Virus record (IMG/VR): IMGVR_UViG_3300022562_001605 | Span: 1-64,000 of that record | Length of the DNA stretch: 64,000 nt | Direction: 5' to 3' (one strand) | Source: a virus | Taxonomy: Duplodnaviria; Caudoviricetes | In this document: piece by piece, positions 12,058-63,751 of the stretch | Position numbering within the stretch: position 1 is the stretch's first letter | How the letters are laid out: each line of letters begins with the position of its first letter | Position numbers and translations under genes: made by a program | Notes under the pieces: model-generated | Told to the model about the DNA's origin: nothing | Database searches by the model: none | The model's input: the letters and a program-made list of their open reading frames with translations, nothing else

Positions 12058-12843
12058 ATGGTTGACTTCCATATCGTAATCCCTTCGCGTTATAATAGTA
12101 CACGGTTCCCGGGTAAACCGTTAGAATTAATTAATGGCATACCAATGATTAAACGTGTATATGACATAGCTTGTCAAACACCAGCAAAAACCATCACTAT
12201 TGCTACAGATAGTGCGCTTATAGAAAGTACATGTAAGGGGTTTGGTGCAGATGTAATGTTCGTTGAAGAATATTGTCATACTGGTACGGATCGTTTGGCG
12301 CAAATCGCAGATCGGATTGGTTGGGAAGACAATGAAATTGTTGTCAATTTACAAGGTGATGAACCACTCATGCCACCATCTTTGTTAGTACAAGTAGCAG
12401 AAGAACTCGATTATTTTCAAGGTATTGATTGTGACATAGCCACATTATTTACCTATTGTACAGAATTTAACAATCCAAATAATGTCAAGGTCGTTTCAGA
12501 TGAATATGGTATTGCTATGTATTTTAGTAGACATGATATACCACACAATGCTACTAGCCTTAAACGTCATATTGGGGTATATGCTTATCGTGCAAGATTT
12601 TTAAAGAGTTTTGCCGCTATGCGTGAATGTGGTGTTGAACGTGCAGAACACTTGGAACAGTTGCGTGCAATTTACCATGGTGCTAAAATACGGGTAGAAG
12701 AAGCATTGGAAATACCAGGTCCAGATGTTAACGTTCCCGAAGATATAGTTAAGATAGAAGAAATTTTAAATCAGATAGAATTGCTAAAGCAAGAAGAATT
12801 AGCGAAACAAGATACTTTAACCGAAGAAGGTGAAACGTCATGA
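12058..12843 (+). CDS. kdsB: 3-deoxy-manno-octulosonate cytidylyltransferase (CMP-Kdo synthetase)
   Basis: IPSRYNSTRFPGKPL, TGTDR, VNLQGDEP, YFSR, RHIGVYAY, EHLEQLR. Confidence 0.93.
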   Translation: MVDFHIVIPSRYNSTRFPGKPLELINGIPMIKRVYDIACQTPAKTITIATDSALIESTCKGFGADVMFVEEYCHTGTDRLAQIADRIGWEDNEIVVNLQGDEPLMPPSLLVQVAEELDYFQGIDCDIATLFTYCTEFNNPNNVKVVSDEYGIAMYFSRHDIPHNATSLKRHIGVYAYRARFLKSFAAMRECGVERAEHLEQLRAIYHGAKIRVEEALEIPGPDVNVPEDIVKIEEILNQIELLKQEELAKQDTLTEEGETS

Positions 12844-29358: not shown

Positions 29359-29360
29359 TT

Positions 29361-31652
29361 TTAACTCCTATCTATTAAATTAATATAATCGAAAAATACC
29401 GACCATTTGTTATTATAACCCAAATCATCAACCAATGTCAACATTGGATATTTGGAAAACGCATCATCGTTATAAAATGGAGTATCATCGATGTTATCAT
29501 GACCATACAACTTCCGATATAATGTTTCGATAATATAAGCTATCTTCATGATATCTTCAGAATATTTTTCTTTACCTTCTATCAGTGGAAGCATAGCCTT
29601 TTTAAATTCGGAATTGTTGTCTAATGCTTTAACACCATTAACAAATTCAGGTTTGGTGATTTGTTTTTTAGCATTAAGTATATTAGATGTATTGAGTTCG
29701 CGACGGTGGAAAGATATTTCATCCACGTAACCAGGCAATACTTCCAATGCAAAATCGAAGATATTTTCCCAATTACCATTTTTTATCGCCTTTTTATAAG
29801 TAGCTACAGGTAAACCATAAATGGTTTTTAAATTATAATCAGTATTATGTTTTTTGTTGTATTCTTTGATTAAAAATTCAAGAACTCTGCGCGTTAAATC
29901 ACCATCACCAATGTTTAATGGGATAAATTCACCGTCTGCATTCACGGTAGCAACGGTAGCACCGAACTTTAATGGGAAAAATAAACCACCATCTTTGATA
30001 TTGACTTGCGCTTTATCCCACGAAATTTTATCACTATCATAATAAGAACGGCGTGAAGTACCACTATATTGATAAAAATTAAGTTCGCGGACTGTGCCTG
30101 TTTCGCGGATAATTTCATCTGTAATTTCTGAAATTAAATGAATATCAGGATTTCCTAATTCTTCACGAAGACGAGATAGTTCCTTTTTAAAACCCATATA
30201 TTTTACTGGTTTATCACCATTAAATTCTTCACGTGGGTTAGCATATTGTGAAACTACAATCGCATCAGAATATTCATTATTATTTAAATATTCACGCAGG
30301 CGACCTAGACCGCCATTCTTTACATCATTAATAACCCAAAGTGTGGTGGCACTTGGTGAAAATTCATTACCAACACCATACTTTTTCAATCTTTTACTTT
30401 TTGTATAGTAACCATTGAGTGTATACTTAGTAAGGTCATATCCGCGCAATGGCGAGAGTTTAACATGTCCGTCATTTTTAATATAACGCTTAAGTATTTT
30501 ATTTTTAATTTTTTCAGGATTGATTAACTTTCGAATTGCATTTTCGCGCTCGAAAAGCTCACGGGATAATTGCGACAATTCTATACAAGCGTACCAATAC
30601 TTATTATTGATTGCGCCGAGTTTCTTTTCGACTTCACCTGCAAATTCATCACGAATTTGTTTAGAACGTTTAACTAATGCGGCAAGTGAACCTTTATCAT
30701 AACGAATTTCTTCACGGTTTGCCGAAACGTCAAGTTCACCGATGTTAAAAAATGCTACAACATGTGAATGTTCTAGAAAATGTTTTAAATCGGCATCTTC
30801 TATATTATCACGCAACTGTTGTCCATCGACACGATACGCCACATTTCCTTGAACTGCTGTAAAAGACGAATACGAATATCCATTTGTAGATGAAAGCATC
30901 CAATCTTTGGTTTCAATTCGATGTTCTGGTAGTTTATCGAATTGAAAATGTAAAGCCCCAGTTACCTTTGGTTTAATAGGAAAATATTTAAGTGCTGAAG
31001 CGGTTTTTTCCCTGAATTTAGAAAAATCTTCGCGCTTGATGGTAAGTTTAACTTCCAACCCACTGTGTTCATCTGTAGCTATATCACCCATTAATGCAAC
31101 CGTAGGAATTCCATCTTCATTTAAAAATATACTGTAAATGTGTTTTTTTCCGCCAAAGCGTGAAACAACTTCAAATGCATTTGTATAACTAAATGGGCTT
31201 TTAGAACCGAGTCCTAGTGCACCAATGAAATCATTAGATTCTGTTTTCGTAGAATCAAAGTAAGTGGTGTATAAACCGCCAGAACGTACGAAACGCAAAT
31301 TACCATTATCGTCGATGGCTTGTACTTCTTCATCATTATCATCTTTAACCATGACAGGAATCATAACACCACGAATATCTTCGTCTGCCAATCCTGTACC
31401 GTAGTCTTTAATAGAAAACCATGGTTCTAAATCGTTTGGAAGGTGAATTTCAAAAGGAGTATTTTTGTTATTTGCTTTGACGTGCGCATCATATGCATTA
31501 CAACTAAGTTCACGAACAATCGCCATTATAGGATCAGTATATAATCCACTAGAAAGTATCTTAAAAGACAGTGCGTTGGTTTTAATGCTGAAATTGGTTT
31601 CACCATGAACACCACCACGTTCAATATTTGACTGTTCTGTATGTAATTTCAT
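29361..31652 (-). CDS. rIIA: rIIA-like protein (N-terminal GHKL ATPase)
   Basis: LYTDPIMAIVRELSCNAYDAH, IKDYGTGL, GALGLGSKSPFSY, SANREEIRYD; directly upstream of rIIB. Confidence 0.92.
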   Translation of the reverse strand: MKLHTEQSNIERGGVHGETNFSIKTNALSFKILSSGLYTDPIMAIVRELSCNAYDAHVKANNKNTPFEIHLPNDLEPWFSIKDYGTGLADEDIRGVMIPVMVKDDNDEEVQAIDDNGNLRFVRSGGLYTTYFDSTKTESNDFIGALGLGSKSPFSYTNAFEVVSRFGGKKHIYSIFLNEDGIPTVALMGDIATDEHSGLEVKLTIKREDFSKFREKTASALKYFPIKPKVTGALHFQFDKLPEHRIETKDWMLSSTNGYSYSSFTAVQGNVAYRVDGQQLRDNIEDADLKHFLEHSHVVAFFNIGELDVSANREEIRYDKGSLAALVKRSKQIRDEFAGEVEKKLGAINNKYWYACIELSQLSRELFERENAIRKLINPEKIKNKILKRYIKNDGHVKLSPLRGYDLTKYTLNGYYTKSKRLKKYGVGNEFSPSATTLWVINDVKNGGLGRLREYLNNNEYSDAIVVSQYANPREEFNGDKPVKYMGFKKELSRLREELGNPDIHLISEITDEIIRETGTVRELNFYQYSGTSRRSYYDSDKISWDKAQVNIKDGGLFFPLKFGATVATVNADGEFIPLNIGDGDLTRRVLEFLIKEYNKKHNTDYNLKTIYGLPVATYKKAIKNGNWENIFDFALEVLPGYVDEISFHRRELNTSNILNAKKQITKPEFVNGVKALDNNSEFKKAMLPLIEGKEKYSEDIMKIAYIIETLYRKLYGHDNIDDTPFYNDDAFSKYPMLTLVDDLGYNNKWSVFFDYINLIDRS

Positions 31653-37401: not shown

Positions 37402-37587
37402 TTATTTTACGTAAGAAACCCAATTGTTTCTAAATTGGCCACCACCGGTTTTGCAGCGTGCAGTAATTGTCTTTTCAGAGCCTGGAGTTCCAAGGCCGTT
37501 CAATGCTTTACTTGCAGCTCGTGCTGAAGAAAAAACGCGTACCTTGCCAGATTTGAGATTTTTAGATTTAACTTGTTTGGTTGTCAT
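37402..37587 (-). CDS. stand-alone NUMOD1/IENR1-like DNA-binding protein
   Basis: KVRVFSSARAASKAL...ITARCK...WVSY. Confidence 0.45.
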   Translation of the reverse strand: MTTKQVKSKNLKSGKVRVFSSARAASKALNGLGTPGSEKTITARCKTGGGQFRNNWVSYVK

Positions 37588-38158
37588 TGTTATTTTCCTT
37601 TATATGTTTTATAATTATATCTACCCGTTCAGATAGTTCATCTGTTTCTATTATTGAAACTCTGTCACTATATACCATTTGTTTGGTAATGTCAAGCATC
37701 GTATGATCTATTAACCTACTGTAATGTCTATTAATACTTCTAACACCGTCGCGTTCAACATCTGATACCAAAAGCGGTTTTATGTAAAAAACATGCTCGT
37801 AGGCATGACAATAATTCTTACAAGTTTCAAAATAGTTATCTAACCATTCATCAAATTTATTATATTGACCAAAGGCGATTAAGGCATATGTAAATAAATC
37901 TGAAAAAGTTCTTTCAGTAAAATATATTTCGGAACTTAGGGTAGCTTCAATTTCATCGGCGTATTTTCTACGAACTAATTCGTCTTGAAAGGCCAGTTTT
38001 AGGTCAAAATCTGCATTAACGACATCGAGAGTAACACCCCATTCGTCCAAGATTGACCGTGCGGTTTTTCTTTCAATTACAGGATAACCTAATTTCTTAA
38101 CTTCATTTAAGATAGTAGATTTTCCCGAACCTTGTGAACCTGCTATTGCTATTAACAT
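37568..38158 (-). CDS. P-loop NMP-kinase-like ATPase (AAA_28/NadR type)
   Basis: IAIAGSQGSGKST, FTERTFSDLFTY, DGVR; start re-called to ATG 38158. Confidence 0.8.
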   Translation of the reverse strand: MLIAIAGSQGSGKSTILNEVKKLGYPVIERKTARSILDEWGVTLDVVNADFDLKLAFQDELVRRKYADEIEATLSSEIYFTERTFSDLFTYALIAFGQYNKFDEWLDNYFETCKNYCHAYEHVFYIKPLLVSDVERDGVRSINRHYSRLIDHTMLDITKQMVYSDRVSIIETDELSERVDIIIKHIKENNNDNQTS

Positions 38159-38178
38159 ATTTTTCTTCTTATTATTAA

Positions 38179-38398
38179 TGGACGTTGATGAAAAGATCAA
38201 CAAAAGGAAACGGTAACAAAAGGTATACAATCAACACAGATGAAACGGCGGCTCTAATTTTGGGGGACATTCAAAACAAGGAACATATCTCCATAAAAGT
38301 TTGACCCATAACAATGCCATTATCAACTTAGGTTAACTATCATAGACCGAAGTCTATTGATAGCTGTTTCTTTTCATATCACCAATCAACAACGTCCA
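38179..38398 (-). ncRNA. candidate ~220 nt structured RNA
   Basis: Ends pair (UGGACGUUG/CAACGUCCA and AUGAAAAGA/UCUUUUCAU); internal CUUCGG hairpin 38336-38364. Confidence 0.55.
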
Positions 38399-42174: not shown

Positions 42175-42759
42175 TTAGATTATTTTTGCTTTAATTAGAT
42201 GGAGTTGCAATACAATATTTAATGCATAAGCTAACGCATGTGCGCGTTTAAAGTAGTATTTTTCGGGGTCATCGGGTTTACGATATATCTCTTCCCTGAT
42301 AATCTTTCTTGTTTGGGGATTGATATATGATTCTAATAAATGACGTTTACCCGGACGAATCAGTGCAATAGTATCTGCAAGTTCTTCGATAGACTGTGGT
42401 TTTATTTTATAAATAATGTCAAAATGCCTGTGTATCTGAAACAATTTTTCAACAGTTTCTTGATTTTCCAATAATGTCCAATCAGGTTCACGTTTAAGAA
42501 GTGCACGAATTTCTTCTTTATTTTCAAAAATATCAAGCAATGAAAGGTGTAAAAAATCAATCTTAAAATAACCTAATTCTTCTGCTTGTTCAAATGGTAT
42601 GGCGGATAATCCTGTAACCTTATCTTTTGCAATATTTTGTAGGTATGCCCCCGCAGGATGTTTTTTTAGTTCACCATTATCTACCCGCGAAGCATAGACT
42701 GCGGTAGGGAAATATTCAAGTGGGTCAAAATCGGTTTTAAAATCTATATCTATATCCAT
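42175..42759 (-). CDS. dnaE: DNA polymerase III alpha (family C) catalytic fragment, C-terminal piece
   Basis: Begins MDIDIDF; KHPAG, GYFKIDFL, LALIRP-like IALIRPG, YFKRAHALAY. Confidence 0.8.
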   Translation of the reverse strand: MDIDIDFKTDFDPLEYFPTAVYASRVDNGELKKHPAGAYLQNIAKDKVTGLSAIPFEQAEELGYFKIDFLHLSLLDIFENKEEIRALLKREPDWTLLENQETVEKLFQIHRHFDIIYKIKPQSIEELADTIALIRPGKRHLLESYINPQTRKIIREEIYRKPDDPEKYYFKRAHALAYALNIVLQLHLIKAKII

Positions 42760-43150: not shown

Positions 43151-45718
43151 TTAGAATAATAACTTACCTATTACGTTACCTTCAACCGCAGAATCGGCAG
43201 TACTTGTAATTTGGAATGTAATATCGTTCGATGTTATAGCCGTTGGATTAATCGTACGTCCTGTTGTACTAAACAATACACTTAATGCAAAACCAACTTC
43301 TGTAGTTCCAAGATTATGAACGACTGTAAAGTTTCCAACACCGTTGTAGATTGTATACCATCCAGAAGGAAGTGAAGTTTCGAGTATTCCCAACGTTGGT
43401 GAACCTATAGCAGGAGAACCGATGCCCGGAGGTAATGGTGAACCATTTGGTGAACCATATGCCTGTCCTGTTGTTATATTAATATAGTATTCTTTTGGTA
43501 CACCAACCCATGCAGCACCGTCATAAACTTTAACTTTATTAAGGTCTGTATCATAAACTGTGCCGCCTTCTACACCAACAGGAAGACCCGCTGTTGTATA
43601 GTTTGGTTGTACATATTGTGCTTTATCACCCGTAAGTGTTAATACACCATTATCGGATAACAACATAAAGAATTCTGTTGTTGCAGGAGAACCTGTTCCA
43701 ACTGGCGAACCATATGCACCGATACCAAGCATTACACTATTTGATGTAACGTTTGTTAAATTGTGGCCTATTGTAATAGGATGTGTAATAGTAGGTGGCG
43801 AGCCTGTCGCTCCAGAAACTACATTCGTACCTATACTTATACTATTATCGGCGTATGCTGCGGCATTTGCACCTAAAGCAATAGCATAATCAAAATCTGC
43901 TATGGCATCTGGACCAATTGCAATTGCGTGATTACCTGGGTTAGTCGTGGCACCCACTCTACCTGCGATAGCACCAGTCGTACCACTACCTATAGCTATA
44001 CAACTTGTTTGATATGCCTTAGCGTTATATCCAATGGCAATAGTTTCGTAACCTACAAAAGTATTAGTGCCTGCGGTTGAACCAGAAAATGCATTTTTAC
44101 CTATAGCGATATTTCGTTGGTCTTTTGTCTGCGCATCCCTTCCAATACAAACAGAATCTGTACCAGTTGGAATGTTATTATATCCTATTCCAACACTATA
44201 TGCACCACCTGGGCCTGCTCCATAACCAACAGCGGTTGCATAGTTAGCACCACAATCTGAACCTTGACCAATTGCTACGCCACCGATTCTATCTGCTATT
44301 GCATTTGCACCAACAGCCGTACCACCTTCGTCAGTTATTGCACCATTTGTTTGACCTGCCAAGGCATTATATCCGATTGCTACCGTGTATCTTTCTCTTG
44401 CAGTTGCAAGATTGCCCACGGAAACAGAAGAAAGACCATATGCAGTACTACTAGTACCCAATGCAACAGTATAACTTTGTGATGCAACGGTATTACTACC
44501 AATAGCTATTGATTCTTGGTAGGTAGGTGAACCAGATCCTGAAACTGCATTATTACCAATTGCAATAGAATTTATTCCTGGTGCGAGTGGAGCGGTTGTA
44601 AAGTTTGCACCTGCGTTTCCTATTAACCAGTTATATGAACCAAGTGGAACCCAAGCAGAACCATTATAAACTTTAATTTCAACGGTATCTGTATCAAAAA
44701 CAGTACCACCCAAAACACCAACTGGTAATCCAGCTGTTGTATAATTTGGGTGTACATATTGTGCTTTTGCACCAGATAATGTTAATACACCATTGTCTGA
44801 CATTAACATGTAGAATGTTTCAATCGGTGAACCGTGTGCGGCCTGTCCGATCATAACACTGCTTGCTGTTGTGTTTGTAAGATTATAACCAATAGTAGTT
44901 GCGTAATCTAAATTTGTCTGTGTTGAATATCCTAATGCTATCGAATTAGTTCCACGACAATCAGCATTTGCACCTACTGCTATTCCACCAACGCGTTGTC
45001 CTTGTGTTCCACCAACTATTGCATTAGCACCAAGTGCAAGTGAATCTTGTGATTTAGCAGTTGCATATGCACCAAAGGCAGTTGCGCGTTGTTTATCTGT
45101 TGCACTTAGTGGTGAACCCAATGGCGAACCTGTGAATCCAGAAGCAATTGCTTGATAACCAACAGCAGTACAATCTGTTGCATATGCATTTGTATATGCA
45201 CCAATTGCGATAGTTCCTGTTAATGTGCTACCAGCATCTTTAATATAACCCGCCTGCGCAGCTTCACCAATTGCAATATTTTCATAACCGCGTGTTATTG
45301 CTTGATAACCAATTGCGATAGATGCCCAACCACCAAATGCTTCAACCGAATCGGCGACGGCTTCTTGACCAATTGCGATACTATAATTACCACGGGCATG
45401 TGCAACTTCACCAATAGAGATTGTACCATCGATTGTTGGTGAACCAAGACCCGCACCATTACCAATAGAAATAGAGCCTATACCAGGTGCTACCGGTGTA
45501 ATAGAAAAATCTGCACCATTATTAGCCGTTATCCAATTATTTGCACCTTCAATTCCAGCTTCTGCTAATGTCGCGTTTCTCCATCCTATTGGCGATCCAC
45601 CATAAAACATTATTTCTCCAGGTGCAACTGAAGTTATATTAACATCACCAATTGTGTTCAGCGTAAGCGAACCACCCAATTCCGTAACGTCTATTTGAAA
45701 TGATTTAATACGTGGCAT
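43151..45718 (-). CDS. tail fibre/spike with YadA-head (Hep/Hag) repeats
   Basis: Many (S/A)IAIGxxAxA repeats in two blocks, each followed by a duplicated ~70 aa module; 13 GSP motifs. Confidence 0.8.
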   Translation of the reverse strand: MPRIKSFQIDVTELGGSLTLNTIGDVNITSVAPGEIMFYGGSPIGWRNATLAEAGIEGANNWITANNGADFSITPVAPGIGSISIGNGAGLGSPTIDGTISIGEVAHARGNYSIAIGQEAVADSVEAFGGWASIAIGYQAITRGYENIAIGEAAQAGYIKDAGSTLTGTIAIGAYTNAYATDCTAVGYQAIASGFTGSPLGSPLSATDKQRATAFGAYATAKSQDSLALGANAIVGGTQGQRVGGIAVGANADCRGTNSIALGYSTQTNLDYATTIGYNLTNTTASSVMIGQAAHGSPIETFYMLMSDNGVLTLSGAKAQYVHPNYTTAGLPVGVLGGTVFDTDTVEIKVYNGSAWVPLGSYNWLIGNAGANFTTAPLAPGINSIAIGNNAVSGSGSPTYQESIAIGSNTVASQSYTVALGTSSTAYGLSSVSVGNLATARERYTVAIGYNALAGQTNGAITDEGGTAVGANAIADRIGGVAIGQGSDCGANYATAVGYGAGPGGAYSVGIGYNNIPTGTDSVCIGRDAQTKDQRNIAIGKNAFSGSTAGTNTFVGYETIAIGYNAKAYQTSCIAIGSGTTGAIAGRVGATTNPGNHAIAIGPDAIADFDYAIALGANAAAYADNSISIGTNVVSGATGSPPTITHPITIGHNLTNVTSNSVMLGIGAYGSPVGTGSPATTEFFMLLSDNGVLTLTGDKAQYVQPNYTTAGLPVGVEGGTVYDTDLNKVKVYDGAAWVGVPKEYYINITTGQAYGSPNGSPLPPGIGSPAIGSPTLGILETSLPSGWYTIYNGVGNFTVVHNLGTTEVGFALSVLFSTTGRTINPTAITSNDITFQITSTADSAVEGNVIGKLLF

Positions 45719-45728
45719 TATTATTTCC

Positions 45729-48107
45729 TTATGAAATCAATATAGTTTCTATCAAGCTTCCGCTTGGTATTGAATAATTAAACAAAAGATAACTAGATTC
45801 TGTACCGAAAATAGTTGTATTACCTAAAGAATCTACAAATGCATAATCACCTTCTACACCATTTATAGCAGGTGCAACTTGTACAAATTCAACAATAGGT
45901 GTAAAATGTACTTGACCATAGTTTGCGGGTGAACCCGTCATTGGTAATGTCATAGCAGGTGAAGCTGTTGGATCATATGTCGCCAACAAAGGAACATTAG
46001 TATTAGAATTAGCAAGAGATGCTATTGGAACTAATGTAACCGCAGGCGAACCTAAGAATAATGGTCCAATATCATGAACTCTATATCCACCATCATAAGA
46101 GCCGTAAATTGCTTCAGCAGAGCCGCGTATAGTGAACGATTTACCTGCTGGAAAACTTGCAGTAACATCACCGCTTATTATAATATCATCTGGAATAGAT
46201 GTAAGTGGTGAACCAACTGGCGAGCCAGTTGTTATACTAGATTGGCTTCTAAAGTTTGCGCCTATAATTGTAGTTGGCGTTGGATCTGTTGCAAATAAGT
46301 AAACAGATTCTGGAGAACCTATAGGACCTGGATCGGTAATAGCTATACTACTAGTACCACCAGATGTATTTGCAGTAAATGCTTCACCATTTGCACCTTC
46401 AATAGAAAATACAGCATTTGCTAATACTGGACTAGCAAAAACCATAATACTATTAATCGCGAGGGTCAATGTGTTGTGCGTTGTAGTATCTGTTCCAGCA
46501 GGAATACTTATTGTTACTGGACCACCACCATCGATATTGACTGCAAACGTATATGTTTTAGTTTGATCTAATCCTGTTAATGTAGCACTTTCAACAATAC
46601 CCAACGAATCTGTATATAGAATATTTTGTTTAGCATACGAATGCGCATACTGTTTTATTCCATTTATAGATACAGATAGTTTGTTATCACCAACGATACT
46701 TGTTTGTGTAAGATATGGTAGTGCAGGTGAGCCTATAGGTGAAGGTGAACCTAATGCTTCAAATGTTCTTGTAACTATAACATTTGCAGTAGTACTAATA
46801 CCGCTAATAGCAGTATCAACATAATTTTTAGTTGCTGGATTTGATGCTAATGTTGGTTCTAAAACATTTACCTGGCCGGTGAATGTACTAGCACCCGATA
46901 CAACCATCGTATTAATATTAGTTGTACCTGTAAATGTTGGTGATACTATTGGTGCTTTTACTATATCAATATTTTCTATAACGTCTTTTACTGTAGCACC
47001 AGAAATAGAAAGAGTAGGTGAACCAAAGTTATCGAAAACTATTTCCGAAGCGTTGTGATTGTGTCCAACACGTGTAATACCTTTAATATCAATAACAGTA
47101 TCGATAGTAGGTGAACCACTAAATGGATTAGTTACAGTAAATCTTAACGTATTTTCGTTAACATTTATTACAGGTGAACCTGTAAGTGGTGAACCTGTAA
47201 CGGTTTCAACGCTTTGTAATACACCATCAGCACCAGCCGAAAAGACTAATGCATCAACATATTCTTTAGAGGCAGCGCCTGTTGCAGATGGTACGGCTGG
47301 CAAGCCTAATACTTCACCGCCATTTACATTAACATTTCCACTAACAACAAAATTTATATCACCACCATTTATTGATATATCACCACCATTTACAATAATA
47401 TTAGCTAATGGACTACCGCCACTAGAAACAATTAAAGTACCTGTCATTGTATCACCAGATTTATTAACTTTAGCATCGAATAAATCTTGGACTGTTATAA
47501 ATGGTGAGCCGCCAATAGCAAGACCGTCAAGAGCTTGTATTGCGTCAACTAATAGTTGCGGACTTCCAAAACTATCTAAAAATTGATTTTGTGCAGCAGT
47601 AAGGTGGAATATTTGTGGACTTCCCATATCGCTGATGTGTCTATCAACATATTGTTTAGTAACAGCACCGAGCGATTCCGTAGGATCGCCTGCAAGGATT
47701 AATTCCCCCGTCATATGGGAGGTACCTGTTGCTAAAATAACAGCGTCCCATCCAGTTGCAGGAAAGCTATCCGCCGCCGTATTACGAATATATAATTGCG
47801 GTCCAGTCGGTCCAATAGTAGGGCTTCCAGAATAACCTACATTATTATACCACAATTGACCTTCTATAGAATTTAACGGACGAACACTATTGGAAAAATT
47901 TTCAAGCATGTATATAAGATTCTGCTGAATTCCTTCACCATAATCTTGCATACCCTTACCATATAATTTCAGTGTAGTTTTTGCTGAAACTGCTTGGGGT
48001 ATAAATGTACCATTTGTTGGACTCAAAATACCATTAGTGGTATATGGATATACAGAAAATTCAGTTTTCGTACCGTCCGTAAAATAAAAGGTATATTTTG
48101 TTGCCAT
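45729..48107 (-). CDS. long tail fibre/baseplate-attached protein
   Basis: N-terminal YGEGIQQNLIYMLENF..GQLWY anchor, KSGDTMTG and ATKNYVD fibre motifs; 16 GSP; AATAAATA at 48140-48147. Confidence 0.75.
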   Translation of the reverse strand: MATKYTFYFTDGTKTEFSVYPYTTNGILSPTNGTFIPQAVSAKTTLKLYGKGMQDYGEGIQQNLIYMLENFSNSVRPLNSIEGQLWYNNVGYSGSPTIGPTGPQLYIRNTAADSFPATGWDAVILATGTSHMTGELILAGDPTESLGAVTKQYVDRHISDMGSPQIFHLTAAQNQFLDSFGSPQLLVDAIQALDGLAIGGSPFITVQDLFDAKVNKSGDTMTGTLIVSSGGSPLANIIVNGGDISINGGDINFVVSGNVNVNGGEVLGLPAVPSATGAASKEYVDALVFSAGADGVLQSVETVTGSPLTGSPVINVNENTLRFTVTNPFSGSPTIDTVIDIKGITRVGHNHNASEIVFDNFGSPTLSISGATVKDVIENIDIVKAPIVSPTFTGTTNINTMVVSGASTFTGQVNVLEPTLASNPATKNYVDTAISGISTTANVIVTRTFEALGSPSPIGSPALPYLTQTSIVGDNKLSVSINGIKQYAHSYAKQNILYTDSLGIVESATLTGLDQTKTYTFAVNIDGGGPVTISIPAGTDTTTHNTLTLAINSIMVFASPVLANAVFSIEGANGEAFTANTSGGTSSIAITDPGPIGSPESVYLFATDPTPTTIIGANFRSQSSITTGSPVGSPLTSIPDDIIISGDVTASFPAGKSFTIRGSAEAIYGSYDGGYRVHDIGPLFLGSPAVTLVPIASLANSNTNVPLLATYDPTASPAMTLPMTGSPANYGQVHFTPIVEFVQVAPAINGVEGDYAFVDSLGNTTIFGTESSYLLFNYSIPSGSLIETILIS

Positions 48108-48153
48108 GTAATATTTTCCCTAAACCAATATTATTCCAATATTTATTGTTTTG

Positions 48154-48879
48154 TTAACCTATAAACGGTGAAGCGAATATTGGTTCTATATCTATATTGT
48201 GCGATAATAAAACGCTGTTAACTTCTTCCATTGTAGTAGCCGCATTTATTTCTGCTTCTATACTCCACTTAAGTTGTGAAAGTGAAACGAGATTTGCTAC
48301 TATTTCATTATAAACTGTTTGAACATCAGCAAGTGACAATGTGACAAAACTATTATCAAATAATCTGAAATCTATTTGAGTTAGATTTGCAATCGACATA
48401 TGTTCTAATAGTGCCGAAACATTATCACGATCTACCGTGCGTGAATCTACTACAATACCCAACGATGTCGTATAACCTTCATCGCGCTGTTCACGCAAAT
48501 GACTGCGTAACAATGAAATGGCGGAGGTTTTATAACTTGCTAATGGTGTTGACCATGCATCTAATTGTTCATTATATTCATCTTCGGTATAAGTAGGTAC
48601 TTTTGCGGTAAATCCAGTAGGAATTGGACCAATGTCTTCTACTATTGACATTGCTTTAGATGTCGTATTGTAAATAGTTTGTCCTCTATGATCTTCTTCA
48701 ATAGTCCATGTTTCAGTGTCTTCATCAAATACAGCAACTTCACCAATATTAACTGTAGGTGGTGTAAGCGTTGTTGAAAACGCAGGCATCAATGGCACAC
48801 CAGGCTCTCTAGGAGAATAGTATGGTTCTACTGATGTAGTGAACTCTTTAGTTTTCTTGTCATAGTTATGAATTAACAT
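48154..48879 (-). CDS. tail fibre assembly chaperone (Tfa-like N-terminus, DUF4376-like C-terminus)
   Basis: PAFSTTLTPP..W..EDHRGQTIY; FRLFDNSFVTLS. Confidence 0.8.
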   Translation of the reverse strand: MLIHNYDKKTKEFTTSVEPYYSPREPGVPLMPAFSTTLTPPTVNIGEVAVFDEDTETWTIEEDHRGQTIYNTTSKAMSIVEDIGPIPTGFTAKVPTYTEDEYNEQLDAWSTPLASYKTSAISLLRSHLREQRDEGYTTSLGIVVDSRTVDRDNVSALLEHMSIANLTQIDFRLFDNSFVTLSLADVQTVYNEIVANLVSLSQLKWSIEAEINAATTMEEVNSVLLSHNIDIEPIFASPFIG

Positions 48880-48890
48880 AAAACACCCTT

Positions 48891-50726
48891 TTAAATATAT
48901 TTAATTATCCAGTTTAATGCCATGTTCTTTGGTCGTGTTTCTGTTCCACCACCTACTGATACTGAACCAGAAGCAACTAGTTGTGTTCCATATCTCCAGT
49001 ACCTATTCTTAGAACATGAAGTATCCCAACCGCCATCCGGCCAGCCGCAGTAATCATTAGCTGTTAAATACGTATGTGTATGATCAAGTACGGTATCTGT
49101 TTGTAAATCACCAACAGTTCTACCACTTACCCAACCACGGACAAATTGATCACGAAGATCGGGAAGTTTAAATGTTCCTGCACCACCTATGCCGTATGTC
49201 GTTCCTATAACAGCGTACAATTCTGGATAAGATGCTTGTAATAATGTATATCCCCAACAGAAGAAATACCCTGTTGGTTCGGTTGAAGCACCAGATGGTG
49301 AAGCCCATGGGAAAATAGTCCCAATTGGAACACTATCGATTTCTGTTGCTAATTTTACATTAGCAGTTGATCGTCTTACATAAACATCAGAGCTAGCGGC
49401 CACGCCCCCAACATACACATTATATGCAGCATCTATAGCTACTCGTTCCAAGCTATTGGTATAAACCCTGAAAGTATCATCCGCTTGGTTAAGTGAAATA
49501 TAATCATCGCCATCACCACCAAAGTTTATTCTACCAATACCACCGTTATTAATTGTTAAATTGCCTGTCATGGTATCACCAGTGACATTTACATATCTGG
49601 CATCATTATAATCACGATCACCTACGTGTGTTCCAGCTGTTGGATCTAATGGACCAGATAACGTTTGATTATTCATCGCCAAAGCACCTGTCATGGTATC
49701 ACCAGTGACATTTACGTATCTGGCATCATTATAATCACGATCACCTACGTGTGTTCCAGCTGTTGGATCTAATGGACCAGATAGCGTTTGATTACCCATA
49801 TCAAGGGAACCCGTCATTGCGTCACCAGTGACATTTACGTATCGCGAATCCGCCCAGCCAACATTTACTGCGTCGTTGGGTTGTGTAATAGAACCTGGAA
49901 GCGTATTTGCTGCATCCGTAGGATCGGCTAGATTTTTTATTTGATGTATGGCAGGCGAACCCATATCAAGGGTACCTTGCATAACTTTACTACCATCGCG
50001 TGGTAAAAAATTAGATGATACACGTATCCATGAACCACCTATATAAATTTGTAAATTTCTTCCATATTCATCACTTGATGCAGCATATACGGTAGTTTCC
50101 CACCACAAGTCACCTGCCACGGCAGAAGTAGGTTGCGTATCTGATATTGTTATACCACCTACGCGTTTCCAATACGCGGTTTCTGGTGAACCCGCAATAT
50201 CTGATATGAATAAATGTCCACGTGTTTGATTAAACCAAAGCTGTCCTTGGATAGGTGTTGATGCACCAAATGCACTTGCTTTATTTGGAACGCCAATTTC
50301 ACCAGCATATCCTAAGTTTCCGCCAATGGTTAAAGCAGGCGAGCCACCTACAACAACCGTAGTTTCATCTGTTGGTGTACCAACATAACTAGAAGATTCT
50401 ACAACATATGAACCATCGTTGTTATCTGAACTGAAAATATCAAATGTTCCAGCTGTAGGAAATGCTAAAGTAACATCACCCGAAAATGTAATGGAGTTAG
50501 CAGTTACGGCTGTTATAGTATGAATATCTTCATCACTTGAAAAGTTTTCAAGCATATGAACAAGATTTTCAAGCATGACTTCACCCCATAAGGAATGTCC
50601 CATGCCTATAAGATCTATATCGGTTTGTCTACTATATCCACTTGGACCTGTTATAGCAGCAGGTACGACATTAATCGTACTTTTACTAGGATCAACAAAA
50701 TTTATTGTGTAATTTTTCGCAGCCAT
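48891..50726 (-). CDS. tail fibre with tail-collar domain
   Basis: VPIGTIFPW..YPELYAVIGTTYG..FKLPDLRDQFVRG; ETRPKNMALNWIIK; internal 41 aa repeats. Confidence 0.85.
   Translation of the reverse strand: MAAKNYTINFVDPSKSTINVVPAAITGPSGYSRQTDIDLIGMGHSLWGEVMLENLVHMLENFSSDEDIHTITAVTANSITFSGDVTLAFPTAGTFDIFSSDNNDGSYVVESSSYVGTPTDETTVVVGGSPALTIGGNLGYAGEIGVPNKASAFGASTPIQGQLWFNQTRGHLFISDIAGSPETAYWKRVGGITISDTQPTSAVAGDLWWETTVYAASSDEYGRNLQIYIGGSWIRVSSNFLPRDGSKVMQGTLDMGSPAIHQIKNLADPTDAANTLPGSITQPNDAVNVGWADSRYVNVTGDAMTGSLDMGNQTLSGPLDPTAGTHVGDRDYNDARYVNVTGDTMTGALAMNNQTLSGPLDPTAGTHVGDRDYNDARYVNVTGDTMTGNLTINNGGIGRINFGGDGDDYISLNQADDTFRVYTNSLERVAIDAAYNVYVGGVAASSDVYVRRSTANVKLATEIDSVPIGTIFPWASPSGASTEPTGYFFCWGYTLLQASYPELYAVIGTTYGIGGAGTFKLPDLRDQFVRGWVSGRTVGDLQTDTVLDHTHTYLTANDYCGWPDGGWDTSCSKNRYWRYGTQLVASGSVSVGGGTETRPKNMALNWIIKYI
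49564..49843. repeat. 123 bp tandem repeat (~2.3 copies) in tail fibre
   Basis: CCTGTCATGG at 49564 and 49687; unit RYVNVTGDTMTG..LSGPLDPTAGTHVGDRDYNDA. Confidence 0.9.
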
Positions 50727-56780: not shown

Positions 56781-57341
56781 TTATTCGGTTCGTAAGAAAT
56801 CTTCTATATTTAGTCCATATTGGAAACTATCAATATCATGAACACCTATTAGGTATAAAACGTATGAAGATACGCTACTTCCGCGCCCTACCCCCCAAAC
56901 AAGGTTCTTTTCTATCAATGTATTTATAATATATATGAGCGTTCTAAGTGTATCAAAAAGCTTCAATTTTCTATAAATTTCTAGTTCTTTAACGCATCTA
57001 AGCTCTCTTTCTTCTATATCGTTCGAACTCCCATCTATTTCAAATAATTTTTCTGCCACATAGGAAATTACGTCCAACGACTTATATTCGTCAGGAATAT
57101 TCCATTCAAATGAACAATCTTGTACGTTTTGTTTTACTAGGATTTGTTCTTTTTTCGGAACATTAGCATTGAACTGCTTTATTTCATTAGTCAATTCTTC
57201 AACAAACAACGAATCTACAGATTTACCTGTCGAAATTCTTTCAATCAAATATTTTGCATTAACTGTAGAATCACCATCAAACCATAAAATTCTATCACTT
57301 AATTTGGTACTATTATGAGAATGAGCTTTCAAATGTTCCAT
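56781..57341 (-). CDS. dnaE: DNA polymerase III alpha (family C) fragment, N-terminal piece
   Basis: R..KELE..WGVGRGSSVSSYVLYLIGVHDIDSFQYGLNIEDFLR; start re-called to ATG 57341. Confidence 0.8.
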   Translation of the reverse strand: MEHLKAHSHNSTKLSDRILWFDGDSTVNAKYLIERISTGKSVDSLFVEELTNEIKQFNANVPKKEQILVKQNVQDCSFEWNIPDEYKSLDVISYVAEKLFEIDGSSNDIEERELRCVKELEIYRKLKLFDTLRTLIYIINTLIEKNLVWGVGRGSSVSSYVLYLIGVHDIDSFQYGLNIEDFLRTE

Positions 57342-57744
57342 TAGTAGTATCAATATCTGGTGTCTTAATTTTTCCACCATTTGCGGCAGGATTTAATAAT
57401 TTCTTAGCCTGTGACGACATTTCAACCGGAGCGCTCATTGGGACGCCACCAGGTACAGGTGGAGCAGGCATAATACCCGGCACCACTGGTTGCGTCATCT
57501 GCGGCATTTGCGTCATCTGCGGATATTGTGGCATCTGCGACAATCCACTATTTCCTACGGTTTGTTTTTCAACGATCTTTTCAACGGGTTTTTCTTCGAT
57601 TATACTATCAATCTTTTCACGAATTAATATCCATTGATCGCGATTGGGACACCAATTGTCCGGTTGTAATTCTTCTACACCTTGTAACCATGCTTTGAAT
57701 TCACGTAATGTTTGTTTTTGCTTTCTTTTCTTTATTTTACTCAT
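57313..57744 (-). CDS. hypothetical protein with PQM low-complexity linker
   Basis: LREFKAWLQGVEE..PNRDQWILIREKI; MPQYPQMTQMPQMTQP. Confidence 0.65.
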   Translation of the reverse strand: MSKIKKRKQKQTLREFKAWLQGVEELQPDNWCPNRDQWILIREKIDSIIEEKPVEKIVEKQTVGNSGLSQMPQYPQMTQMPQMTQPVVPGIMPAPPVPGGVPMSAPVEMSSQAKKLLNPAANGGKIKTPDIDTTNGTFESSFS

Positions 57745-57759
57745 CTCAGATATCCTATA

Positions 57760-58245
57760 TTATATTATATCCCCTGCTACCTTTTCCTTTAAATATTTGT
57801 TATATGAATCGGATGGGGCTACATTCACCCATGAATCGGGCGATATTGGATGACATAACATCTGGTATTTATTAAGACTTGGACCGATGTTGCGGTAGTT
57901 AGGCAAATAATCCATAACTACTATAGTTTCCAATTCGACCATAGACATATTCATGCCATATACTAATGCTTTAAATTCGCGGCCTGCAAGTTCTGATACT
58001 TCTACGACATCTAGTTGTAAGGTATCATCATCAACAACTAAGATGTTCCAATGCGCAGGAAGCGCAAACGGGAATCCCTTAATTGAAATTGCTATTGTTG
58101 CACAAACTACTTCTTCAAAAATCAATAATGGAGAAAGTGTAAAATCCATCATATTTAAATCAAGAACATACATATATTCCGATGGCATCGGACCTTGTAC
58201 GTTATCGAGGATTATGGGGTCGTTGTTTTCATTAAAAATTAACAT
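57760..58245 (-). CDS. hypothetical protein next to UvsW, possibly Hint-fold
   Basis: All-beta; IAISIKGFPFALPAHWNILV..VSELAG. Confidence 0.5.
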   Translation of the reverse strand: MLIFNENNDPIILDNVQGPMPSEYMYVLDLNMMDFTLSPLLIFEEVVCATIAISIKGFPFALPAHWNILVVDDDTLQLDVVEVSELAGREFKALVYGMNMSMVELETIVVMDYLPNYRNIGPSLNKYQMLCHPISPDSWVNVAPSDSYNKYLKEKVAGDII

Positions 58246-58296
58246 TATTCTTCTTTTTATTATAATTATAGATGTTCTATTTTACAATAGAATATA

Positions 58297-59802
58297 TTAA
58301 TAGTCAACAGTTTTTTTAATAAATGGGTATTTTGCTTCAGTATAATATTTAACCCTTTTTGTTACATGTCTTCTACTATATTTTAAATCAGAACAAATAT
58401 CGTGAACGTGAACAAAATTCTTATCTTTTGCTTTTCTCAATCCACGACCAATAGCCTGAATTACACGTATGAATGACTTTCCTACATCTATCAATACAAG
58501 GTTAAAGATTCGTTTAATGTCCAATCCCGTTCCTGCAATATTGACTGTTGCTATAACTACAAGATTATCATTATCTTTAAATTTTTGGTATATTTCTTCA
58601 CGTACAGTAACATGATCTTGTCCATGAAGGAATACTGAATCGGGAATGTGTTTTGCTAATTTCTTACCAAAAGCAACACCGTTAACAAGACAAAGAACGT
58701 TTCCTTTATCTAACATACTAAGATTTTGAATATAGTTTGATATCCACGACAGCCGCGACTTCTCCGTATGTAAAAATGATTTCTCTGCTGTAAAATCTGG
58801 AAAGTATGCATCTTTAAATTGTTTATAGGTTAATTTTTTAATACTTGGTTCATCTTTAATATCTTCCAAAAACTGTTTGTATTGTTCGGTAAGATTAACT
58901 TCCATTTGAAGAATATCAATCTGAAGATTGGATAGATGACCCTCCGCTATCAATTTGTGTGCAGGTACTTCGTATAAAACTTCGCCAACGGCGGTTTTTA
59001 CGGACATTCTGTCACTTTCGCCTTCGGGTAAAGTACCAGTACAACCAAATCTAAATGGAATATGCTTTCCATGGTTGATTAACAAATCATTTAATACTGG
59101 GCCACGTAACCCTTGACATTCATCGACTATTACCATTTGGAATTGGGTAACAACTACAGGATTATTCTTTAAGGTTTGCCACGTTGATACGATATGTGTA
59201 TGTTCTAAATCCTTTGCACTGCCACTATATTCGCCAACATCCAGCCCGAAAAATTCATAAGCCTTTTTTGTTTGATTGGTTAATGTAGTGTCTGGAACAA
59301 TTATGACCGATCTAAAACTTGCGTAGCGTTCATATGACAATGCCAAAGCTGCACACATGCTGGTTTTACCTGCACCCGTTCCAGCAATAACAATTCCGCC
59401 GCCGTTTTCTATAAGTTTATTAACTGCTATTATTTGATAATCGCGGACTTTCCATGGCTCATCGGTTTCAGGATCTATTATATCGGAAAAGAAATCTTCA
59501 CCGATTGGTTTAACATTAACGCTTGGCGTTCTTCGATTATCTTCAATTTGTACATTATATCCTAAACGGATTAAACTGGGGACGATTTCCTGAAGTAAAT
59601 GTATAAAAGTTTTTCCATTCTTGTGGAAAAATCTAATTTTTCCATCCCATGTTCCCAGCTGATATTTTGGGCTAAAGTAATAACTTTCAGTAAGGATTCC
59701 ATATTTTTCGTAATAGTATATAATATGGTCTGCATGAAGTCCTGTTATAACACAGTTGACTTCATCTATAAGAACGATTTTGCATGGTCTATTTTCAATC
59801 AT
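58297..59802 (-). CDS. uvsW: SF2 DNA helicase, UvsW-like
   Basis: RDYQ, TGAGKT, IVDECQ, GCTGT, GTGLDIKRI, QAIGRGLR. Confidence 0.92.
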   Translation of the reverse strand: MIENRPCKIVLIDEVNCVITGLHADHIIYYYEKYGILTESYYFSPKYQLGTWDGKIRFFHKNGKTFIHLLQEIVPSLIRLGYNVQIEDNRRTPSVNVKPIGEDFFSDIIDPETDEPWKVRDYQIIAVNKLIENGGGIVIAGTGAGKTSMCAALALSYERYASFRSVIIVPDTTLTNQTKKAYEFFGLDVGEYSGSAKDLEHTHIVSTWQTLKNNPVVVTQFQMVIVDECQGLRGPVLNDLLINHGKHIPFRFGCTGTLPEGESDRMSVKTAVGEVLYEVPAHKLIAEGHLSNLQIDILQMEVNLTEQYKQFLEDIKDEPSIKKLTYKQFKDAYFPDFTAEKSFLHTEKSRLSWISNYIQNLSMLDKGNVLCLVNGVAFGKKLAKHIPDSVFLHGQDHVTVREEIYQKFKDNDNLVVIATVNIAGTGLDIKRIFNLVLIDVGKSFIRVIQAIGRGLRKAKDKNFVHVHDICSDLKYSRRHVTKRVKYYTEAKYPFIKKTVDY

Positions 59803-62098: not shown

Positions 62099-62707
62099 CT
62101 ATTGTAAGTCTTTTGCTTCTTTTTGTTTAATTTTAATCATCTTATTAAGACGTTTGCGGATTTCATCTGCTTGTAACCATAAATCTTCACCGCGAAGAAT
62201 TGCGCTGAGTTCATCATCGGTTATAAATGGAACATAATAATCAAAAGCCATTTTTTTGAACCATTTAATGGTGGCTTCCAGTTGCTGATATTGTTCATTA
62301 CCCTTACCATATGTTCCACTACTAAAATTATGAATCATCATCATACTATTTTCGTGAACTAAAAATTCGTCGGCTGCTAAAAATATTAATGAACCTAAAG
62401 AGCAAGCTTCACCTTCAAGGCTACAAACAATATGTGCGGATGAATAGCGCATGGTATTTACCATCTGAACGCCGGTTGTTAAATCACCACCTGGAGTATT
62501 TAAATGTATATAAACTAAATCTTCTTCGGTAGCTGTCCCCATTTTGTGAAACATGTCAACATATGCTTGTGGTTCACGAATTGGACCACTTAAATAAAAA
62601 TGATGTACTTTCCGCATTACTGCTTGTTCATAGTAATGGAAGGGTTTTGTTAATTCATCTTCTTCATCGAGAATATCTACGTTGTCATTGTTTGTTTTTT
62701 TACTCAT
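62099..62707 (-). CDS. clpP: ClpP-like serine protease
   Basis: HLNTPGGDL, ACSLGSLIFLA (catalytic Ser), MMIHN (His), DLWLQADE. Confidence 0.85.
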   Translation of the reverse strand: MSKKTNNDNVDILDEEDELTKPFHYYEQAVMRKVHHFYLSGPIREPQAYVDMFHKMGTATEEDLVYIHLNTPGGDLTTGVQMVNTMRYSSAHIVCSLEGEACSLGSLIFLAADEFLVHENSMMMIHNFSSGTYGKGNEQYQQLEATIKWFKKMAFDYYVPFITDDELSAILRGEDLWLQADEIRKRLNKMIKIKQKEAKDLQ

Positions 62708-62960: not shown

Positions 62961-62992
62961 AAAAAAGGGGAAATCCTAAGATTTCCCCTTTA
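62961..62992 (-). terminator. intrinsic terminator after tmRNA
   Basis: GGGGAAATC-TTAG-GATTTCCCC followed by a T-run on the minus strand. Confidence 0.85.
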
Positions 62993-62994
62993 AG

Positions 62995-63249
62995 ACTATT
63001 GGGTTACAAGGCGTCACCCCCGGATGGGCTTACGCAGCTAAGCGAAGTTCCTCATCGTAAAATGCGTCGTTTGCATTTATGGTTTTTATGCCATTTTCGG
63101 TGGTCATCTGCCGTATCATCCACTTACCATTCCTTGCCCCGTCGAATCCAGTTCATCCCCAAAATATCGTCAAATTGCCAAAAATTGGTGGAGATGGGGG
63201 TGTCGAAACCCCGTCCGCAACTTGTACTAAGTTCGCTTCATATGATAAT
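62995..63249 (-). ncRNA. ssrA: circularly permuted (two-piece) tmRNA
   Basis: Acceptor piece ends CATCTCCACCA at 63186; 25 nt spacer; coding piece starts GGGGATGAACTGGATTCGAC at 63160; tag ANDAFYDEELRLAA at 63074-63030. Confidence 0.9.
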
Positions 63250-63253
63250 AAAT

Positions 63254-63261
63254 TATTTATT
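63254..63261 (-). promoter_or_regulatory. late-type promoter for tmRNA
   Basis: AATAAATA overlapping the acb1 stop, ~6 nt before the predicted tmRNA start. Confidence 0.6.
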
Positions 63262-63751
63262 CTTCACACCACCATTCTTCAAAAGGTTTATAATATTCTT
63301 CAATTATTTCAATTTCCCCTTCAAAATTAGGAAGATCCTTACACTGCAATCCCCCCACGTTATAAGATAGGGTTATGTGTGGTTTATATTTGTCAAAATC
63401 GTATGTTGCCCCGTGTTCATTCATTAAAAAGTTGTGTCGTTTGACCAGTTCTGGACATTTATATTTTAAAACGAGGCACATATTAACAGTCCCGTCTTTG
63501 GTTGGCTGCGATGGCCATTTTACGAATTTGGTAAAATTACCGATCAGCGGGTTTTCAAATGTACCCGCCGGTTCATAGTCTGGAAGATGCTTTCTACTGA
63601 ATAAAAGTGTGGTGTGAAGACTATCCGTTCTAACCCTATTGGGAATATTATTATCCTTAATATATTTTCTAATTGCTTTTTTGGTTTTTTCGCTAAACTT
63701 TACACCTGCATATGTACCCGTTTCTTTACTAATCGTTTCCATAATTATCAT
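63257..63751 (-). CDS. acb1: anti-CBASS 2H phosphodiesterase (Acb1/T4 gp57B family)
   Basis: GTYAGVKFSEKT, LHTTLLFSR, GATYDFDKYKPHITLSYNVG: two HxT motifs. Confidence 0.88.
   Translation of the reverse strand: MIIMETISKETGTYAGVKFSEKTKKAIRKYIKDNNIPNRVRTDSLHTTLLFSRKHLPDYEPAGTFENPLIGNFTKFVKWPSQPTKDGTVNMCLVLKYKCPELVKRHNFLMNEHGATYDFDKYKPHITLSYNVGGLQCKDLPNFEGEIEIIEEYYKPFEEWWCEE

Follow-up and report, generated by a model that had tools for sequence, protein, structure and literature searches.

Phage virion glycosylation has been documented so far mainly for mycobacteriophage capsids and tail tubes; in the account given in PMC12619734 (citing Freeman et al. 2023), the mycobacteriophage virion glycans are placed at the C-termini of capsid and tail-tube subunits. 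In the flagellin O-glycosylation carried out by Maf proteins (PF01973; Magnetospirillum structure 5mu5), Ser/Thr residues of the exposed filament surface are modified in the cytoplasm before assembly, with a CMP-sugar as donor. To our knowledge, flagellin glycosylation does not use a short sequon. The TibC/Aah heptosyltransferases and the HMW1C-type N-glycosyltransferases glycosylate, also in the cytoplasm, repeated sites on beta-rich surface adhesins, the latter enzymes acting on trimeric autotransporters. The subject of this report is a 64,000-nucleotide stretch of DNA (IMG/VR record IMGVR_UViG_3300022562_001605, positions 1 to 64,000; hereafter the window) from an uncultured jumbo myovirus, in which the tripeptide Gly-Ser-Pro (GSP) recurs in three tail-fibre proteins. 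The motif is read here, tentatively and from its pattern in sequences, as an O-glycosylation tag that is selected at the protein level and lies in exposed loops of outer tail proteins.

The proposed system resembles that of the mycobacteriophages in that phage-encoded enzymes would transfer sugar onto the phage's own virion proteins. It differs, as far as the account cited above describes that case, in the dispersed tripeptide in loops of fibres, baseplate and sheath and in the Gram-negative-type host; a complete relative of 363 kb, described below, also lacks GT2 and GT1 transferases. As in the Maf system, the relative encodes a Maf-like protein that passes the Pfam cut-off and whose model matches 5mu5 and CstII, and the phage encodes a CMP-sugar synthetase. 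In contrast to the Maf system, the acceptors would be phage tail proteins and not flagellin, an exact tripeptide is implied, the phage proteins have 200-260 amino acids (aa) as opposed to the 632 residues of Maf, the donor would be Kdo (3-deoxy-D-manno-octulosonic acid) and not pseudaminic or legionaminic acid, and the phage system is a predicted one. One of the GSP-bearing fibres carries YadA-head repeats as trimeric autotransporters do, which recalls the adhesin glycosylation systems, although GSP differs from the N-X-S/T sequon of the HMW1C type. In the homologous fibre cassettes of the related jumbo phage XacN1, a hydroxy-amino acid is likewise followed by Pro in period-4 units (VTPx compared with GSPx); those units form long low-complexity tracts, whereas GSP stands single or paired in folded domains with exact Gly and Ser. 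Literature searches for the GSP motif in phages found no paper describing it.

Motif counts in the window and in a complete relative

The motif lies in a fibre operon that includes the following open reading frames (ORFs), all on the minus strand and referred to here as A, B, C and D:

43151..45718, minus strand: protein A, tail fibre of 855 aa with YadA-head-like repeats; 13 GSP
45729..48107, minus strand: protein B, tail fibre of 792 aa; 16 GSP
48154..48879, minus strand: protein C, Tfa-like assembly protein (DUF4376), between D and B; 0 GSP
48891..50726, minus strand: protein D, tail fibre of 611 aa with a tail collar domain; 3 GSP

A, B and D translate cleanly, and tail identity is supported by Pfam and PHROGs (YadA head in A, collar in D, Tfa-like in C); C is a non-virion helper within the operon. 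An exact recount of the translated ORFs reproduced the 13, 16 and 3 GSP of the preliminary description, which was made from the sequence alone. The total of 32 compares with 1.2 expected from composition (0.42 in A, 0.54 in B and 0.26 in D), about 26-fold above chance. Over A, B and D together, 2000 within-protein shuffles averaged 1.24 GSP and never exceeded 7, and no tripeptide of any kind occurred in them more than 15 times; the earlier composition estimate had likewise predicted about 1. All SP dipeptides of A are GSP (13/13), also as described before; the proportions are 16/21 in B and 3/4 in D. The clusters quoted previously (GSPLGSP, GSPVGSP) are found in the translations, and so is the pair of sibling repeats in D, of which one has LDMGSP at residue 253 and the other LDMGNQ at residue 308; here one GSP stands where the sibling repeat has GNQ. 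Outside these three proteins, the window has 115 further ORFs with 17,551 aa in total, in which 42 SP but 0 GSP occur (1.9 GSP expected), in line with the earlier remark that non-tail ORFs are not enriched. The GSP enrichment in the three tail-fibre proteins is thus confirmed as real.

The window is syntenic with the 176-235 kb region of the relative (363,531 bp; CheckV completeness estimate 100%), whose genome encodes 87 GSP as compared with 15.5 expected, 64 of them in about 10 tail proteins. The carriers in the relative include:

Fibre locus: the orthologues of B and D (4 GSP in the D orthologue)
Second cluster: a 1022-aa protein (15 GSP), a 3702-aa protein (14), a 259-aa protein (7) and the baseplate wedge (3)
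Tail sheath: 4 GSP, all within residues 161-264, outside the conserved C-terminal domain

Since the baseplate wedge and the sheath carry the motif as well, GSP is not confined to fibres but marks the exterior of the tail (fibres, baseplate and outer sheath).

Selection on the protein and character of the motif

The 32 window sites are encoded by 17 distinct 9-mers. Their Ser codons are skewed to TCA/TCG; a skew of the same type is present at SP dipeptides not preceded by Gly, at Thr-Pro and at Ala-Pro, both in the window and genome-wide in the relative, and it is for this reason a codon-pair effect, in which NCT is avoided before CCN. Among the eight B orthologues with DNA, synonymous changes were found in 11 of the 11 well-populated GSP columns, and in three of these 11 conserved columns the Ser codon switches between the TCN and AGY families. 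A motif at the DNA level is ruled out by the genome-wide avoidance of NCT before CCN together with the TCN/AGY switches at conserved sites. The constraint acts on amino acids and not on DNA, as the preliminary description had argued from the variety of codons.

Motif statistics were pooled over 549 sites in 60 GSP-rich homologues. The information content stays below 0.35 bit at every flanking position. The residues most often found in G-x-P are Ser (550), Leu (63), Asn (27) and Thr (25), with Ser exceeding Thr 22-fold and Asp/Asn 20-35-fold; the corresponding counts are Gly 550, Pro 49 and Ala 35 for x-S-P, and Pro 550 followed by Ser 57 for G-S-x. Spacings between motifs begin at 4 (GSPxGSPx) and are never 3, so the motif is not collagen. 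Only a minority of sites show spacings of 4-7; in most cases the distance is 10-50 residues, within folded regions. A collagen-like sequence or a low-complexity Pro-Thr or Ser-Pro linker was rejected, there being no long tandem G-X-Y or (S/T)P tracts. GSP is an isolated, Ser-specific tripeptide without flanking context whose three positions are tightly coupled, and its residue preferences are unlike those of interchangeable turn-formers.

Placement in the proteins

In the AlphaFold model of B (mean pLDDT 66; C-terminal half mostly 80-95, lower in some loops) all 16 GSP serines are in coil. Seven of the 16 motifs belong to the well-folded C-terminal domain (about residues 440-792). Ten of the 16 sites overlap segments with pLDDT <50, and some short segments of this kind coincide exactly with the motif (331-333, 362-364). 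A Foldseek search with the model gave weak FliD-like and sheath-domain-like matches only. In an alignment of 35 B orthologues, 48 columns contain a GSP; about seven are conserved in most sequences, and many are confined to few orthologues and lie in short insertions. Distant homologues of the B fold have gaps or unrelated residues at the GSP positions, and many B sites are short insertions or GSPx duplications that these homologues do not have.

Protein A contains PF05658 YadA head repeats (E 4.9e-37, 8 stretches) and aligns to 1p9h and 7o23; the lone GSP within its YadA-like region (residue 396) sits in a segment that is inserted with respect to YadA 1p9h. No Pfam domain other than PF05658 was detected in A; the C-terminal anchor PF03895 and the stalk PF05662, both present in its bacterial homologues, are missing. 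A is a phage fibre that borrows the YadA head repeat and not an autotransporter. Judged from the model of B and the alignments of A and B, GSP appears to lie in exposed loops, often as short insertions; the preliminary description had likewise regarded the motif as inserted into conserved modules.

Distribution across phages

All 48 B orthologues in the protein collection are GSP-rich (3-16 each), and several fibres that share only the N-terminal domain of B have 15-25 GSP. More distant B homologues have 0-2, and GTP and GAP are almost absent. Among IMG/VR loci, only those bearing a B orthologue are enriched (5-20 GSP as compared with 0.6-1.8 expected); 73 control loci with fibres sharing the N-terminal domain contain 87 GSP (110 expected), at most 2 per protein. 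The over-represented tripeptides of other phage fibres stem from obvious tandem repeats (collagen-like, glycine runs). Among the homologues of A (n=120), only the three closest phage ones (P0122, P0123 and P0139 with 10, 8 and 6 GSP) are GSP-rich; the other 116 YadA-like homologues have 8 GSP altogether where about 22 are expected, and the bacterial YadA-like adhesins among them show no enrichment.

Each protein of the syntenic XacN1 fibre cassette has 0-2 GSP, and the fibres instead hold long (V)TPx tracts of period 4. Six paralogous XacN1 fibres (L102:27070-36998) carry strict period-4 Thr-Pro tracts (vTPs/vTPd), with up to 39 TP in one 746-aa fibre protein; these tracts may be a sister acceptor system or simply linkers.

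A turn inherent to the fibre fold in general was rejected, as the control fibres, the distant B homologues and the YadA-like homologues of A are not enriched. By this distribution GSP is specific to the clade and not to the fold. The preliminary description had called the motif lineage-specific, in keeping with the control loci and the XacN1 fibres, and had stated that an equal frequency in unrelated fibres would speak against a tag; fibres outside the clade, both unrelated and homologous, were found to be without the motif.

Genes for sugar activation and putative sugar transfer

Among the window ORFs of at least 145 aa, Pfam revealed no recognisable glycosyltransferase or protein kinase and no member of PF01973; the parent contig of the window (75,277 bp) represents about 20% of the genome. 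One gene of the proposed pathway is present:

12058..12843, plus strand: KdsB, CMP-Kdo synthetase (PF02348, 1.8e-46; TIGR00466, 201.7 bits, cut-off 155.2)

This enzyme may provide the sugar donor in activated form; no other part of the pathway proposed here lies within the window. With only 21.7 bits against the PseF model, the sugar would be Kdo and not a nonulosonic acid. The relative has an orthologue of KdsB (64% identical) at 176762-177490 (about 176.7 kb) and a KdsA at 57811-58641 (E 5e-128 to solved KDO8P synthases), the genes for two consecutive steps of the Kdo pathway lying 120 kb apart; entries from Burkholderia are, we presume, among the top matches of this KdsA.

An island at 44-51 kb of the relative encodes two MptE/Maf-like proteins, a GT8-like protein (29.3 bits, cut-off 24.3), a radical SAM/SPASM protein and 4-5 methyltransferases. 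Against PF01973 one Maf-like protein scores 37.4 bits (cut-off 34.6) and its weaker paralogue 22.6 bits. A GxGPSL-type N-terminal motif is conserved in the Maf-like proteins. The AlphaFold model of the relative's Maf-like protein (pLDDT 78.7) matches MptE 8sd5 (E 9e-5), Maf 5mu5 (E 6.4e-4, TMq 0.51) and also the CMP-sialic acid transferase CstII 1ro7/1ro8 (prob 0.96-0.97), and a Maf/GT42-like fold is predicted accordingly by the model. The preliminary description had proposed a search for glycosyltransferases elsewhere in the genome, and Maf-like and GT8-like genes do occur in the complete relative, none having been seen in the window ORFs of at least 145 aa. It had also called any link between KdsB and the motif speculative; with a genuine KdsB in the window and with KdsA, KdsB and Maf-like genes in the relative the link is more plausible than was assumed, the lack of a transferase in the window notwithstanding.

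Phosphorylation by a kinase, the other modification suggested previously, fails because the gene concerned (37568-38230) is an AAA_28/dNMP-kinase-like nucleotide kinase and because the complete relative has no Pkinase (PF00069). GT1, GT2, WaaA and 2-oxoglutarate-dependent prolyl hydroxylases are not found in the complete relative either, and a 206-aa ORF that was guessed to be like prolyl 4-hydroxylase (P4H) gave no family match.

Further candidates for the modifying enzyme were rejected. Three radical SAM/SPASM maturase genes lie within the fibre operon of the relative, between the D and B orthologues (L001:2019-9882), and their best matches are maturases of the PapB-type ranthipeptide and CXXX-repeat kinds. 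They were discarded since neither the window nor locus L002 has them, although both are equally GSP-rich. More likely, these genes go with their Cys-rich neighbours: a protein of 523 aa and 8 Cys precedes the trio, and the tripeptides CTC (x5) and TCT (x4) occur in the upstream D orthologue (551 aa). Thioether cross-linking of a phage fibre by the trio may take place. A sulfotransferase of the relative (L100:2691-3464; Sulfotransfer_3, 1e-16) was rejected as a mobile gene, its flanks in other contigs showing no GSP excess; it is 84-86% identical in several viral contigs of lower GC content (L104-L110) and about 35% identical in Synechococcus phages, and looks like a mobile auxiliary gene unrelated to GSP. 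The radical SAM gene of the glyco-island is uninformative as a marker because homologues of about 52% occur alone in many small contigs of low GC content.

Five to seven genes of the island recur in two phages of about 70 kb (G012 and G013; GC content 50-52%), among them those for the GT8-like (E 6e-113), radical SAM (E 1e-166) and Maf-like (E 7e-27) proteins, a 266-aa protein and a cupin. The two phages, which were compared only with each other, have homologues for 35 of the 106 proteins of one in the other, and they are set apart from the jumbo clade by much smaller genomes and higher GC content. Both show a GSP excess (16 as compared with 4.3 expected, and 15 as compared with 4.7), concentrated in few large proteins near the minor tail protein and again with a preference for Ser in G-x-P. 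PF01973 was not found in nine large contigs without GSP excess (28-61% complete). For a contrast of genomes with and without the module, only small contigs were found among the relatives of G012 and G013.

Interpretation

The reading as an O-glycosylation tag is ranked first because the motif is selected, exposed, Ser-specific, context-free and restricted to the clade and to tails, and because the lineage has a CMP-sugar pathway and Maf-like genes. With such properties, a short tag recognised by an enzyme is a better fit than a turn imposed by the fold. In the tag for Ser O-glycosylation or phosphorylation that had been suggested at the outset, the enrichment, the selection, the restriction to clade and tail and the position in loops have held, and phosphorylation by the kinase has not.

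In the mechanism proposed, the Ser of GSP would be O-glycosylated in the cytoplasm before or during tail assembly by a phage-encoded Maf-like transferase (PF01973, GT42-like fold) with a CMP-activated ulosonic acid as donor. CMP-Kdo would come from the phage's own KdsA and KdsB, and the island's methyltransferases and GT8-like enzyme could extend or trim the sugar. We infer that a modification occurs, with Ser as its acceptor, and that Kdo and these enzymes take part; the route through Kdo and Maf is a specific but unproven mechanism for it. For the phage of the window, we infer a transferase from the relative, the window itself holding only KdsB and the acceptor proteins.

A wider proposal is possible, though more doubtful. 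GSP would be the first minimal sequon to be defined for O-glycosylation of phage tails in the cytoplasm, and a portable module of Maf-like transferases, a GT8-like enzyme, radical SAM/SPASM proteins and methyltransferases, fed by KdsA and KdsB, would put a Kdo-type sugar on the Ser of every exposed GSP, giving a coat like lipopolysaccharide (LPS) over fibres, baseplate and sheath; the module would move between phages, and the tails of the recipients would then evolve GSP loops. If so, a three-residue tag readable from sequence would predict which phages sugar-coat their tails, and it would sit on the organelle with which jumbo phages of Gram-negative hosts bind their receptors. It would also offer a new explanation for Kdo-pathway genes in phages, would bear on adsorption, on shielding from proteases and defence recognition and on the immunogenicity of therapeutic phages, and, as a compact sequon with a soluble cytoplasmic transferase, could become a tool for glyco-engineering. 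Even without modification, an exact tripeptide acquired convergently in non-homologous tail proteins is an unexplained constraint that deserves structural study.

Several observations weigh against glycosylation by this route. No transferase was found among the window ORFs searched, and KdsA and KdsB could simply serve host LPS synthesis. We know of no established modification in which Kdo is carried on protein Ser. In Caulobacter phage CcrBL9 the tail genes are immediately followed by a Maf-like gene (31% identity), and about 4,300 aa of tail proteins contain 0 GSP; XacN1 has distant GT8-like and weak Maf-like genes (261.7-264.1 kb) without GSP; and in Pseudomonas phage D3 a Maf-like gene lies next to that of the capsid, with only 5 GSP as compared with 1.9 expected. 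In view of these three phages, recognition of GSP would be limited to a particular subfamily or module at most. The link between enzyme and motif is only an association, seen in the gene content of two phage groups, too few for statistics. The co-occurrence of transferases with motif-rich fibres that the preliminary description had proposed to look for is thus found in the jumbo clade and in G012 and G013, fails in CcrBL9 and XacN1 and is marginal in D3. A last point against the tag comes from GSP 686-688 of B, which AlphaFold models with confidence as a tight two-residue beta-hairpin turn, as would suit a structural role.

The Maf-like gene of D3 (L206:5691-6409, orf6.5/orf7) directly follows the gene for the major capsid protein; its annotation divides it into two overlapping ORFs, although tblastn matches span both orf6.5 and orf7. 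The sole SP of the D3 capsid protein and the sole SP of its major tail protein are both GSP.

It is quite possible, though somewhat less likely than the tag, that GSP is purely a structural or adaptive loop motif without modification, i.e., a turn of the SPXX type (Ser as N-cap, Pro at i+1, a flexible Gly) that serves the clade in building, lengthening or stiffening exposed loops, was spread by 12-nucleotide GSPx duplications and is kept for good folding or protease resistance. Strand-like segments flank the sites, one site in B forms the confident hairpin turn mentioned above, the GSPxGSPx period of 4 equals that of the (V)TPx linkers of XacN1 and suggests a shared linker logic, and the window is without a transferase among the ORFs searched. 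However, N-cap turns normally accept Asp, Asn and Thr, all of which Ser exceeds manyfold at GSP sites; the same folds are without the motif outside the clade; the three positions are strongly interdependent, and no pattern flanks them; and unrelated phages that share the transferase module also show a GSP excess.

That GSP is a sequon for another modification or enzyme (phosphorylation, sulfation, acylation or host-encoded glycosylation) is unlikely. The features of the motif argue for a Ser-specific enzyme without telling which one, and the relative does encode a sulfotransferase, several methyltransferases and radical SAM/SPASM proteins (three in the fibre operon). Against this, the complete relative has neither Pkinase nor a 2-oxoglutarate-dependent prolyl hydroxylase, the sulfotransferase is mobile and recurs at 84-86% identity in contigs without GSP excess nearby, and the radical SAM trio is missing from the GSP-rich window and L002. 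Periplasmic O-glycosylation by the host would not reach tails assembled in the cytoplasm, which counts against a host-encoded route.

Slightly less likely again are GSP loops that serve as docking sites for a fibre chaperone or a prolyl isomerase acting in assembly, for a decoration protein or for a ligand on the host surface. In favour of this are the exposure, the repetition and the clade restriction of the motif, the action of isomerases on Ser-Pro bonds and the Tfa-like chaperone encoded between D and B. A single chaperone or receptor is, however, hard to reconcile with a motif that occurs in unrelated folds and locations (sheath, baseplate wedge and several fibres), and no candidate binder was identified. 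A neutral by-product of slippage duplication and recombination among fibre genes, suggested by the tandem GSPx units, the indel-rich loops and the mosaic nature of phage fibres, is strongly disfavoured and highly improbable, given columns that stay conserved between orthologues of 36-57% identity while synonymous codons turn over and Ser switches codon family, an independent origin in non-homologous proteins and the near absence of the variants GTP, GAP and ASP.

Additional features of the phage and its relative

The helicase of the phage is 45% identical to those of XacN1 and Xoo-sp13. No close isolate was found, and B is without a relative among 50,697 phage records. A permuted two-piece tmRNA (transfer-messenger RNA) at 62964-63296, minus strand (Rfam beta_tmRNA 94.8 bits, tmRNA_permuted 125.2 bits), sits between the ORF at 62099-62707 (Clp-protease domain) and the next gene. 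The beta type of the tmRNA hints at a betaproteobacterial host, probably a freshwater species of low GC content, and, judging from this tmRNA and the Kdo genes, the host is of Gram-negative type.

In the relative, a 377-aa beta-propeller protein of RCC1 repeats (L100:1316-2449; 7 repeats, 8.7e-69) has its gene immediately behind that of a fibre-like protein of 935 aa and may be a fibre-tip or receptor-binding module. A family-C DNA polymerase (DnaE-like) is present in the window in two pieces that flank the fibre cassette (42175-42759 and 56781-57380, minus strand), an arrangement also found in XacN1 and in the relative. A RIIA/RIIB-like pair lies at 28348-31652, minus strand (phrog_612, 2e-116; phrog_609, 8e-76), with 58-67% identity to the relative.

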